Source: Nitrospirota bacterium
Lineage (GTDB): Bacteria > Nitrospinota_A > UBA7883
Assembly: GCA_011052055.1 (NCBI GenBank)
Contig: DRJW01000143.1
Span: 1-37,620 of the forward strand
Direction: 5' to 3'
DNA length: 37,620 nucleotides
Made by a program: the position numbers and the translations under genes. The first letter of the stretch is position 1. Each line of letters starts with the position of its first letter. The notes below the pieces were generated by a model. It was not told where the DNA came from. It saw only the letters and a program-made list of their open reading frames with translations, and searched no databases. Of the stretch, positions 3,543 through 6,008 are shown in pieces.

Positions 3543-6008
3543 ATGAAGTTTGCGAGGAGTAGGTTAGCCAATCGCTGGCATGCAGGTGGGTTGTCACAGA
3601 TCCTTTTTATACTCCCGATCGCGCTTGTGCTCCTTGCGACTGCTTCTTTGGCCTTTGCCCAAGGCGGCGCGTCGGCGGCGCCGGTTGACTACCGGGATGT
3701 TCCCTATGTCGGGAGCCGGAATGTAATCTGGATCCTCGCCGAAGTCCATCTCCTTTTTGGCGGATTTGTTCTGGGAGTGCCGGTCTTCGCCTGGATCTGC
3801 GATGTGATCGGGACATTGACAAAAGAAGAGCGGTACAACAAGCTGGCCAATGACTTTATAGGTTTGACCCTGGCCGCTTTTGAGATGACCGCGATGCTTG
3901 GGGCCACCTTTCTCCTTTTTCTTTTAGCCCTTTATCCCAAAGTCGTAAATTACATGACGGGCATTTTTTGGCCTACCTACTACGTATATGTAATGCTTTT
4001 CGGCGCGTCCATGGTCATTCTCTACCTCTACTGGTCAGGGTTTCAGACCATGAAAAATCGTAAGGGTCTGCACCTGTTTATCGGTTTTCTGCTGAACCTT
4101 ATAGCGGTCGGTGTCATGCTCGTGCCCAACGCCTGGGCTACATTCCAGGCCAGCCCGGTGGTTCTGCCAGGGGGTATGGGCGCTTTGGAGAAGGCTTGGG
4201 CCGCAATGAACAATCCAACCTGGGGGCCGGTGAATATCCACAGGTTTATATCCAACATCGTTCTGGGCGGTTTTCTTGTCGGCGCTTATTCAGGTGTTCG
4301 TTACCTGGGGGCCCGGACACAAGAGGAGCGGGAGCACTACGACTGGATGGGATATATAGGAAACTTTATCGGGATGTTCGGCCTGCTTACGCTTCCTTTC
4401 GCCGGATACTGGCTGATGCGGGAAGTCTATATGTACAACCAGCAGATGGGGATAACCTTGATGGGTGGGTTCCTATCCTGGTTGTTCATCATTCAGGCTG
4501 TTTTGATAGGCATCCTCTTTCTTGGAGCCAATTACTACTTCTGGCTGGGTCTGGCCTATCGGACGGAAGGGGCGGAGCGGTACATGAAGCCCATACTGAT
4601 TTTGCTAACGGCCCTCTTGAGTTGCTTTATGGTGTGGCTGACGCCCCATAGCCTGGTCGCGAGCATCGCGGAGGCGCGAGCGATGGGCGGGGCGCATCAT
4701 CCTCTTTTGGGGCTCCTGGGCGTGATGTCGGCGAAGATGACTGTCGTGAACCTGATGATTCTGATTTCTTTTGTCAGCTTCCTTATGTATTGGCGCGCAG
4801 GGAGCAAGCCGACGGCCTCGTGGGCGAAGGTGGCCAACGTCCTTATTGTCATACTTTTCTTTGTGGTTATCGTAGGCGTGATCGTTATTGGAGTCTGGGG
4901 CTATTTTGTTCCAGCCATTGTCAGGATCAATGTGTTCTCCGTAACGCAGGTGCTGGCGGTTCTAACTGTACTGCTTACGGTCACTCCTCTGGTCGGGTTT
5001 ATGCTTAAGGGCGCCAAATCAACCTCAAAAATGACCTTTGGAGTAATGCCTGTGAGGTCGCAATTGGGCCTGATAGTGAATGCTGTTACGATTGTTTTCA
5101 CGATGTCATTGATGGGATACGCCCGCTCGGCTTCCCGCGTTCACTGGCATATCTACGGGGTGTTGGAAGACACCTCCCCGTATGCTTTTTCTCCCGCCCT
5201 TGGGCACGCCGGCGCCATGGCGGCGCTGGCCACATTTTTATTCTTCGCCCTGGTTGGAATTATCCTGTGGATCACTATCAGCGCTTCGCGGAGCTCCGCC
5301 TTTTCGACGCAGTATTTCTTTTTGGCTCCTTTTATCTTCTGGGCTACGACCCTTACCGGCAAGCCGGTTGAGCCGTCGTCTGGGCCGTCTGGACAGGTTG
5401 TGGAGCAACCTAAATTTATAGGAAAGGTCGCGGGGACCATTTGCGGGGTTCTACTGCTTTTTATTTGGATTTCCAATTCGGTGCCTCAGATGCAATCTCT
5501 TCCACCTAAGAAGGTAGCGTTCGATGTGTCGAATCTCAACACCAAAGCTGATCTGGTAGACGCGGGTAAAAAACTTTTCTTTGGCAAAGCTCAATGCGCG
5601 CTTTGCCATTCACTTGAACACACCGAGTCGCCACGTTGTCCTGTTATGAAAGGGCGTGGAGCCAAGCGCACGAGGGAGTATATTTTGGAGTCCATGATGC
5701 ATCCAAAGGCGGTTATCTATAAACAGTATGAAACGGCCGGGCCAGGAAAATTCTATCCGGCCCAGATGCCGGTCATCAACAAGCCGCCTATCGGCCTTTC
5801 CGATACCGAGATGCTGGCTGTCGTATCATTTATTCAAAGTTTAGGTGGCAAAGTCACGGTAGAGCCATCTGAATTAAAAGCGCTTGTAGCGGGAACTGGT
5901 AAGCTTATACCGGAAACTGCTACGGAGGAGGCTACTACAGAGGAGGCTACTACGGAGACAGCTACTACAGAGGCAACTGCTACGGAGGGTAACGGCGATG
6001 GAAATTGA
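3543..6008 (+). CDS. cytochrome bd subunit I (CydA)-like polytopic membrane protein lacking a Q-loop, fused to a C-terminal class I cytochrome c domain
   Basis: The track ORF is 3474-6008. I prefer the ATG at 3543 (GAAGGGA upstream; MKFARSRL ... signal/anchor). By-eye match to E. coli CydA:
- ILAEVHLLFGG corresponds to the H19 region.
- GFQTMKNRKGLHLFIGFLLNLIAVGVMLVPNAWATFQASP corresponds to [38 protein letters not shown].
- VNIHRFISN corresponds to the H186 region.

There are more than 12 predicted TM helices and no long hydrophilic loop. The C-terminus has CALCH plus a distal AQMP Met. Confidence 0.7.
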   Translation: MKFARSRLANRWHAGGLSQILFILPIALVLLATASLAFAQGGASAAPVDYRDVPYVGSRNVIWILAEVHLLFGGFVLGVPVFAWICDVIGTLTKEERYNKLANDFIGLTLAAFEMTAMLGATFLLFLLALYPKVVNYMTGIFWPTYYVYVMLFGASMVILYLYWSGFQTMKNRKGLHLFIGFLLNLIAVGVMLVPNAWATFQASPVVLPGGMGALEKAWAAMNNPTWGPVNIHRFISNIVLGGFLVGAYSGVRYLGARTQEEREHYDWMGYIGNFIGMFGLLTLPFAGYWLMREVYMYNQQMGITLMGGFLSWLFIIQAVLIGILFLGANYYFWLGLAYRTEGAERYMKPILILLTALLSCFMVWLTPHSLVASIAEARAMGGAHHPLLGLLGVMSAKMTVVNLMILISFVSFLMYWRAGSKPTASWAKVANVLIVILFFVVIVGVIVIGVWGYFVPAIVRINVFSVTQVLAVLTVLLTVTPLVGFMLKGAKSTSKMTFGVMPVRSQLGLIVNAVTIVFTMSLMGYARSASRVHWHIYGVLEDTSPYAFSPALGHAGAMAALATFLFFALVGIILWITISASRSSAFSTQYFFLAPFIFWATTLTGKPVEPSSGPSGQVVEQPKFIGKVAGTICGVLLLFIWISNSVPQMQSLPPKKVAFDVSNLNTKADLVDAGKKLFFGKAQCALCHSLEHTESPRCPVMKGRGAKRTREYILESMMHPKAVIYKQYETAGPGKFYPAQMPVINKPPIGLSDTEMLAVVSFIQSLGGKVTVEPSELKALVAGTGKLIPETATEEATTEEATTETATTEATATEGNGDGN
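5916..5990 (+). repeat. in-frame tandem repeat, 5 x 15 nt, encoding a Thr/Glu/Ala tail
   Basis: The units are actgctacggaggag, gctactacagaggag, gctactacggagaca, gctactacagaggca and actgctacggagggt. They translate to TATEE ATTEE ATTET ATTEA TATEG, immediately before the stop and the overlapping next start. Confidence 0.9.

Follow-up and report, generated by a model that had tools for sequence, protein, structure and literature searches.

We analysed a gene at positions 3543-6008 of the forward strand in a 37,620-nucleotide stretch of a Nitrospirota bacterium (contig DRJW01000143.1, positions 1 to 37,620; this whole stretch is called the window below). The sequence of its product, a bd-like membrane protein with a cytochrome c fused to the C-terminus, places it among the NIDE0901-type bd-like oxidases of the OR-N2 group. 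With a probability of roughly 55%, we consider it to be the core subunit of an OR-N2 bd-like enzyme that would most likely act as a cytochrome c:oxygen oxidoreductase and would possibly pump ions. The protein is a further example of a known, biochemically uncharacterised family and not a new kind of protein. To our knowledge, most Nitrospira and their relatives have no haem-copper oxidase, and the bd-like family is the standing candidate for their O2 respiration.

The OR-N2 group has been characterised by 14 transmembrane (TM) helices, the CydA ligands H19, H126 and H186, Tyr at the E99 position, Glu at the E107 position and Ser at the E445 position (Murali, Gennis and Hemp 2021), and its signature includes a conserved Trp six residues past the E445 position. 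Because every point of this signature fits the window protein except the Glu at the E107 position, which it lacks, we assigned the protein to OR-N2. In a sample of 81 non-identical relatives from GTDB genomes (the best 80 of about 600 loci) and metagenome contigs, the signature residues H69, H177, H233, Y149, S529 and W535 were all invariant or nearly so, S529 and W535 being assigned by offset only. In OR-N2 operons, genes for several cytochromes c have been noted together with one for an EbdC homologue (Murali, Gennis and Hemp 2021), and the window operon likewise carries an EbdC/NxrC-like gene and a series of cytochrome c genes. With the loci of N. defluvii and N. moscoviensis the protein shares 50-53% identity, including 51% over residues 35-779 to FP929003.1 877600-879990, a segment that by its position and description is probably NIDE0901. 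Lücker et al. (2010, cited in PMC6606698 and PMC8115632) singled out NIDE0901 and proposed it as a novel terminal oxidase because of its putative haem b and copper sites; subsequently, 14 helices, conserved N-terminal haem ligands and membrane helices in place of the Q-loop were described for the bd-like proteins (Lücker et al. 2013, PMC3578206).

The reading frame 3543-6008 is open throughout and codes for 821 amino acids. Starting from an in-frame ATG further upstream (3474), translation yields 844 residues, the form deposited as HEB71699.1, 'c-type cytochrome [Nitrospirota bacterium]'; the ribosome-binding site of ATG 3543 (AAGGGA) is better than that of ATG 3474. A word-index search returned more than 5000 relatives, and in a library of 50%-identity representatives the membrane domain matched 812 clusters at E<=0.001 and 131 at E<=1e-30. 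The AlphaFold2 model (mean predicted local distance difference test score, pLDDT, 68; predicted template modelling score, pTM, 0.72; helices mostly above 85) and hydropathy together gave 14 TM helices, with 13 of them between residues 59 and 581 (3717..5285), where hidden Markov model (HMM) alignments to 9r2g_A and 5doq_A agreed. These are preceded by a signal sequence or anchor at residues 18-39 (3594..3659; hydropathy segment 12-44, model helix 18-39), and its AFA-Q motif (ASLAFA/QG) suggests that it may be cleaved. The last helix, TM14 (residues 625-646, 5415..5480; hydropathy 623-648), returns the chain to the periplasm. A weakly hydrophobic stretch between TM13 and this anchor, residues 588-605, is probably interfacial, since as a membrane-spanning helix it would put the cytochrome c on the cytoplasmic side. 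We assigned the N-terminus and loops 204-226, 302-309, 366-386 and 535-552 to the periplasm because c-type cytochromes mature there and because the distribution of Lys and Arg, judged by inspection of the sequence, agreed with the positive-inside rule. The predicted loop between TM6 and TM7 has only 8 residues (302-309), and no periplasmic loop of the membrane domain exceeds about 23; the quinol-binding Q-loop is therefore absent, as the original prediction had it, and the protein appears, on its sequence, to be a CydA relative that has lost its quinol site.

The relationship to CydA was recognisable at the level of the family and not from the single sequence. Taken by itself, the window protein gave no significant match to the CydA family PF01654 (E = 0.056, 12.4 bits, under the Pfam cut-off of 26.2), and phmmer against the PDB with the single sequence matched the cytochrome c domain only. 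To that extent the CydA-like N-terminus proposed by the original prediction found no backing in its own PF01654 score; the family profile, the fold and the aligned H69, H233 and NAW motif did bear it out. A relative of 87% identity scored 38 bits against PF01654 and one from Manganitrophaceae, of 53% identity, 53 bits, the matches of relatives covering profile positions 3-250 only in every case. A 30-sequence family profile matched the CydA structures 9r2g_A (E = 2.3e-10) and 5doq_A (E = 1.5e-9). The ten best Foldseek matches of the model were all CydA chains (E 2.7e-5 to 1.2e-2, probability 1.00), and no structure from the bd-like family was among the Foldseek matches in PDB entries released up to April 2026. 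HMM alignments showed TM1-TM5 to be homologous to TM1-TM5 of CydA, and the homology is confined to this region, in which the O2 site lies. Against the single E. coli CydA, hhalign aligned the family profile over TM1-TM4 only (E = 0.0046, or 2e-4 with 81 sequences), with no alignment beyond residue 199. These profile and model comparisons indicate that the CydA homology is real but remote.

Within the aligned region, H69 (3747..3749) corresponds to H21 of Geobacillus and H19 of E. coli CydA, the active-site haem ligand in E. coli, and H233 (4239..4241), aligned with the His at chain position 197 of 9r2g_A, is the equivalent of the haem b558 ligand H186; both were invariant in 83 sequences. H177, the H126 equivalent, was invariant too, and N196-A-W198 aligned with N148-G-W150 of E. 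coli CydA. The segment from Y149 to S156 (3987..4010) aligned with the proton-channel positions E99 and E107: the former is occupied by an invariant Tyr (Y149) and the latter by Ser (S156), which is Glu in 75 of 83 relatives. Among the CydA ligands that had been proposed for checking, H19 and H186 are thus retained, and E99 has given way to Tyr. For the C-terminal half, hhalign against E. coli CydA gave E = 0.04, and the candidate equivalents of M393 and E445, taken by the offset of Table S6 (Murali, Gennis and Hemp 2021), are M395/M399 and S529. An internal duplication or a CydB-like C-terminal half in place of the missing CydB found no support, the comparisons of N-half with C-half and of C-half with CydA or CydB giving E = 0.04 to 0.21. 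Likewise, no CydB was matched by Pfam among the window neighbours, in keeping with the expected lack of an adjoining cydB-like gene.

Two His clusters distinguish the membrane domain. H385-H386 (GGAHHP, 4695..4700) lies at the periplasmic start of TM9, and H534-W535-H536 (RVHWHIYG, 5142..5150) at the periplasmic end of TM12, as placed by the model helices. They had been regarded as foreign to CydA, and indeed E. coli CydA, with 6 His in total, contains neither an HH nor an HxH motif. The clusters were essentially invariant in the 81 relatives, with one exception for HH and one or two for HWH. They are predicted to lie on the periplasmic side of the membrane, where H69 and H233 are also found, so that both the conservation and the topology called for by the original prediction were as it expected. 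H69, H177, H233, H265, H369, H386 and H536 were invariant, and H385 and H534 showed one exception each, in the same sequence (L031, metagenome-assembled genome [MAG] contig JBGPIL010000006.1), where H385 is replaced by Asn and H534 by Tyr while the other seven conserved His are kept. Because the sole sequence to lose H385 also loses H534, the two clusters possibly belong together, and this covariation suggests that HH and HWH form one site. Overall, 9 of the 10 membrane-domain His were conserved, compared with 33% of all columns (hypergeometric p = 3e-4), and His was the most conserved residue type of the domain, followed by Tyr and Trp. We infer that the clusters would be cofactor sites, for haem and/or copper, an idea already put forward for NIDE0901 by Lücker et al. 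(2010, cited in PMC6606698 and PMC8115632). The loops that carry them (370-392 and 532-550) are the least confident part of the model (pLDDT <50), and with such confidence in their loop H369, H385 and H386 are candidate copper ligands only. The window open reading frames (ORFs) that were scanned included no gene for a copper chaperone or for haem modification.

The C-terminal class I cytochrome c domain (5544..5897) was matched by PF00034 with E = 1.7e-7, over its cut-off, and contains a CxxCH motif formed by C685, C688 and H689 (CALCH, 5595-5609) and the distal Met742 (5766-5768); together with TM14 this agreed with the additional helix and complete cytochrome c domain that had been seen at this end of the protein. 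Its best solved relative is Kustd1711 (7zs0; E = 1e-13 with the single sequence and 4e-21 with the family profile), a His/Met dihaem cytochrome c that serves as an electron carrier of about +350 mV in the anammox nxr cluster (PDB 7zs0). Whereas Kustd1711 is soluble and has three domains and two haems, the window protein has a single domain tethered by a membrane helix. Since CxxCH and M742 align with the CxxCH and the distal haem ligand M116 of this +350 mV carrier, a role of the fused domain as a high-potential periplasmic electron entry point is well supported by alignment. The domain is thus a genuine periplasmic cytochrome c of the His/Met type, as proposed earlier; the fusion itself is not general, the cytochrome c being a separate gene in canonical Nitrospira. 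In N. defluvii (L030, 9719-12463) and N. moscoviensis (L021), that gene lies in the frame of the bd-like gene with three stop codons between them, and its protein starts with two hydrophobic segments. The window protein ends in a tail (5898-6005) of 36 low-complexity residues rich in Thr, Glu and Ala (ETATEEATTEEATTETATTEATATEGNGDGN), which is modelled as disordered and varies among relatives.

The bd-like gene is the first of an operon of about 14 kb, not mentioned in the original prediction, whose genes are all on the forward strand, overlapping or separated by short gaps; a terminator-like hairpin with a 12-bp stem and a T run (17925..17951) closes it, and the overlaps together with this terminator argue for a single transcription unit. 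Overlapping the bd-like gene by 11 nucleotides is that of MrpD-like subunit 1 (5998..7455; PF00361 E = 1.6e-45), which is closest to MBH subunit H (6cfw_H, E = 1e-43) and retains the four canonical charged sites, namely Glu142 in TM5, Lys222 in TM7, His336/Lys340 in TM8 and Lys395 in TM12. A divergent MrpD-like subunit 2 (7817..9403) scored 724 bits against NF009310 (cut-off 564). Between the two are encoded a 41-residue single-helix protein (7452..7577), with homologous small ORFs at the same place in L004, L086 and L087, and an 88-residue membrane protein (7582..7848), with an ORF of 52-70% identity at the same position in L004-L007 and L009 and a counterpart conserved in sequence and position in L086 and L087. 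Profile searches with the 88-residue protein gave no family match; both proteins lack a family assignment and may be small subunits of the complex. Downstream follow a membrane-anchored protein of 755 residues (9454..11721) with three c-haem motifs (PF13442/PF00034 in three stretches; CxxCH at residues 161, 301 and 420) and an EbdC/NxrC-like haem-b domain (PF09459 E = 1e-23, TIGR03477 E = 4e-35), then two dihaem cytochromes c and one monohaem cytochrome c (11718-12482, 12592-13278 and 13293-13676, from Pfam and CxxCH counts). The distal genes (13820..17883) encode a 209-residue protein of no assigned function, a cytochrome b6-like protein (14591-15760; PF00033 E = 1e-31) with a C-terminal extension bearing CxxCH at residue 344, a second such 209-residue protein and a 376-residue cytochrome c, and the same series occurs in L086. 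The operon as a whole is syntenic in L086, L087 and L004, the last from Nitrospira sp. Kam-Ns4a.

Taken together, these features would fit an enzyme in which high-potential electrons arrive in the periplasm through the c-type cytochromes of the operon and the EbdC/NxrC-like haem-b protein and pass into the fused His/Met cytochrome c. From there they would move to haems near the periplasmic face held by H69 and H233, and probably also to centres at H385/H386 and H534/H536, with or without copper, and O2 would be reduced at the H69 site inherited from cytochrome bd. Because the Q-loop is gone, quinol would not be the donor. The bd-like enzyme, presumably co-translated with the two MrpD-like and the two small membrane proteins, would probably form one complex with them that links redox chemistry to the translocation of H+ or Na+. 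The homology, topology, conservation and operon structure are shown by the analysis; that O2 is the substrate, that the His clusters hold cofactors, that the MrpD-like subunits associate physically with the enzyme and in which direction ions would move are points that we infer. The best physiological argument for an oxidase comes from Nitrospira sp. Kam-Ns4a, a cultured aerobic nitrite oxidiser reported to have neither a cbb3 nor a canonical bd oxidase (PMC12342949), since its OR-N2 gene belongs to the same clade and has the same arrangement as that of the window. In addition, transcription of the homologous cluster is strong when N. moscoviensis grows with nitrite and O2 (PMC6606698). In the window itself there was no OR-N1-type CydA gene, no other ORF having a PF01654 match or the needed size.

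Several observations weigh against the proposed oxidase. Both proton-channel carboxylates of cytochrome bd are missing (Y149, S156), and the b595 ligand E445 is given as Ser in OR-N2 (Murali, Gennis and Hemp 2021, Table S6); a bd-type mechanism is therefore not simply transferable. The C-terminal seven helices had no relation to CydA, CydB or haem-copper oxidases detectable by profile or Foldseek. Compared with subunit 1, MrpD-like subunit 2 lacks two canonical lysines, having Cys for the Lys of TM7 and Glu for the Lys of TM8. The presence of a membrane cytochrome b in the operon suggests a degree of exchange with the quinone pool. Moreover, no member of the OR-N family has so far been purified or assayed, and anammox bacteria, which are strict anaerobes, also have related bd-like proteins (PMC3578206).

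The cytochrome b6-like protein and the anammox homologues would equally suit a machine for reverse electron transfer, in which electrons run from cytochrome c through the bd-like haems and cytochrome b to quinone, driven by ions flowing inward through the MrpD-like subunits. For bd-like proteins, a part in reverse electron transport similar to that of alternative complex III has been proposed (Lücker et al. 2013, PMC3578206), and the MrpD-like subunits of the related TO_2 cluster were suggested to dissipate the ion-motive force for quinone reduction (Yu et al. 2022, PMC9040806), in a mixed version with some electrons going to O2 and others to quinone. We nevertheless consider such a machine rather unlikely for the window: the quinol/quinone-binding residues of CydA are missing, profile scans found no Rieske protein encoded in the window, the H19-type site, the defining feature of the four-helix bundle that reduces O2, is strictly conserved, and Kam-Ns4a would be left without any known oxidase. 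There is likewise no Rieske gene beside the cytochrome b6-like gene of the window, unlike the clusters of Nitrospira and Manganitrophaceae.

The His clusters admit two further readings. Haem-copper oxidase subunit I has a His pair on helix VII, which ligates CuB, and an HxH on helix X, which ligates haem a3 and haem a. The HH and HWH motifs resemble these, and another small oxidant such as nitric oxide (NO) might then be reduced at a His-rich haem or metal centre like the binuclear centre of haem-copper oxidases and NO reductases. A gene resembling clade III NosZ lies about 17 kb past the end of the operon in the window, from which one may gather that the organism handles nitrogen oxides; it stands beyond the terminator and outside the operon, however, the protein resembles neither haem-copper oxidases nor NO reductases in sequence or fold, and the family is found in aerobic nitrite and manganese oxidisers, so that we hold this to be highly improbable. 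It is somewhat less improbable, though still quite unlikely, that the clusters bind no extra cofactor and have structural, proton-relay or haem-propionate contacts, leaving only the H69/H233 haems and the c haem. Their location at helix ends and loops instead of deep in the membrane, with low model confidence, would suit such a role, as would the GRQPW segment of E. coli CydA, which we take to be the counterpart of the HWH region by eye and which, to our prior knowledge, contacts haem without ligating it. The equation of the HWH region with GRQPW, together with that of the C-half with CydA 386-522, had no statistical backing, the local alignments giving shuffle p ~0.8. The exceptional conservation of His in the membrane domain and the joint loss of H385 and H534 in L031, pointing to one site, speak for cofactors.

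Returning to the oxidase as the preferred function, its relatives fell into three clades in a neighbour-joining tree of the membrane domain. Clade A comprises the window protein, L004-L009 and L046; the cytochrome c is fused wherever the contig extends far enough, the gene order is bd-MrpD-small-small-MrpD and position 156 is Ser or Thr throughout. The clade of canonical Nitrospira, to which N. defluvii and N. moscoviensis belong, has a separate downstream cytochrome c gene and Glu at position 156, and no MrpD-like genes occurred within 10 kb at 63 loci of this type. The Manganitrophaceae/Troglogloeales clade, which corresponds to the TO_2 cluster, combines a fused cytochrome c with the order MrpD-MrpD-bd and Glu156. 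Among 83 relatives, the MrpD pair never occurred without the fusion: it accompanied 14 of the 19 fused forms, full or truncated, and none of the 64 read as split; one of those read as split, L046, ends at a contig edge, and several of the fused exceptions lie on short contigs. Position 114 on TM2 (3882..3884) is Glu in all of clade A and Ala, Ser or Gly in 71 of 73 others, the residues found in the other clades being Ala, Gly, Ser or Asn. Four relatives have Glu at both 114 and 156, as if they were intermediates, and the change from Glu156 to Glu114 looks like a relocated channel carboxylate.

Beyond the window, the clade A cluster was found in Nitrospira sp. Kam-Ns4a, the Nitrospira MAG 'RCA' and marine and groundwater MAGs. 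The closest relative in the genome collection, L005 (CAMYNL010000009.1), has 73% identity and the same operon and sits on a contig with the label 'uncultured Gammaproteobacteria bacterium'; the remaining relatives are all of Nitrospirota type, which suggests that it was misbinned or laterally transferred. The new points are modest: the occurrence of clade A outside Manganitrophaceae, a gene order that includes two conserved small proteins, the strict association of the fusion with MrpD genes in the sampled loci and the shift from Glu156 to Glu114. As a tentative and doubtful extension, clade A might represent a distinct design of ion-pumping oxidase, with a bd-derived O2 module driving complex-I-type antiporter modules, not confined to manganese oxidisers and serving as the main or only oxidase in nitrite oxidisers such as Kam-Ns4a and in marine Nitrospirota-like bacteria.

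Outside the operon, a divergent dCache-domain histidine kinase is encoded upstream on the reverse strand (997-2775, -), with a similar kinase at the same position in L086, and it is a candidate regulator of the cluster. Farther downstream (34291-36539, +) are a 140-residue 'NOV5WD8W family nitrogen cycling protein' (NF052405, 222 bits, over the cut-off) and the 600-residue NosZ-like protein mentioned above, which carries nos_propeller and cupredoxin domains and matched 'clade III lactonase-type nitrous-oxide reductase L-NosZ' (NF052460) with 616 bits, just under the cut-off of 700.

Which terminal oxidase Nitrospira and its relatives use has been a standing question since 2010. If the proposed function is true, the family would add a third kind of chemistry to the O2 reductases, or would be a hybrid that combines the bd-type haem site with extra His-ligated cofactors, and its antiporter-linked form would be a new coupling of O2 reduction to ion pumping. 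This matters for how much energy nitrite and manganese oxidation can yield, both being globally important low-energy metabolisms. The antiporter-linked form extends more widely than the single family that had been called its sole holder, with a second gene order and a different arrangement of the channel carboxylate. Kam-Ns4a, cultured, with a clade A cluster and reportedly no other oxidase, would be a practical organism for biochemistry.

Compared with known systems, the likeness to haem-copper oxidase subunit I is at the level of motifs only, namely a His pair and an HxH near the positive side. Homology was rejected, as there was no COX1 Pfam match and no such oxidase among the 50 best of 108 Foldseek matches (E<=10); if functional, the likeness would be convergent. 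The OR-C1 bd-like proteins, e.g. of Desulfovibrio, are also Q-loop-less CydA relatives with a C-terminal haem c, implying a cytochrome c donor. Membership of OR-C was rejected because of the wrong helix number and residue signature: OR-C proteins have 8 helices, keep E99 and E107, lack H186 and pair with a second CydA-like subunit, and the window protein fits OR-N2 instead. With canonical CydA (PF01654; 5doq, 6rko, 9r2g) the window protein shares the H19/H186 ligands, the NxW motif and the overall fold by Foldseek; it differs in having no Q-loop and no CydB or CydX partner, five more helices and the fused cytochrome c.

Much closer are the canonical Nitrospira proteins of the NIDE0901 type ('bd-like_2' of N. 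moscoviensis), which have the same HH and HWH clusters, 14 TM helices and no Q-loop, whereas the fused cytochrome c and the two following MrpD-like genes set the window apart from them. TO_2 is a terminal-oxidase cluster described from 'Candidatus Manganitrophaceae' (Yu and Leadbetter 2020; Yu et al. 2022, PMC9040806), and the 2022 study stated that within Nitrospirota it is confined to that family. Like TO_2, the window encodes a fused bd-like protein, two MrpD-like proteins, a periplasmic haem-b (EB_dh) multihaem protein, a membrane cytochrome b and several cytochromes c. TO_2 has the order MrpD-MrpD-bd, Glu at position 156 and a Rieske gene, whereas the window has bd-MrpD-41aa-88aa-MrpD (the middle two being the 41- and 88-residue proteins) and Ser156. 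The MrpD-like proteins of clade A and TO_2 are 42-50% identical for subunit 1 and 27-48% for subunit 2, and the bd-like proteins of TO_2 and the window, 53-58% identical, belong to separate clades.

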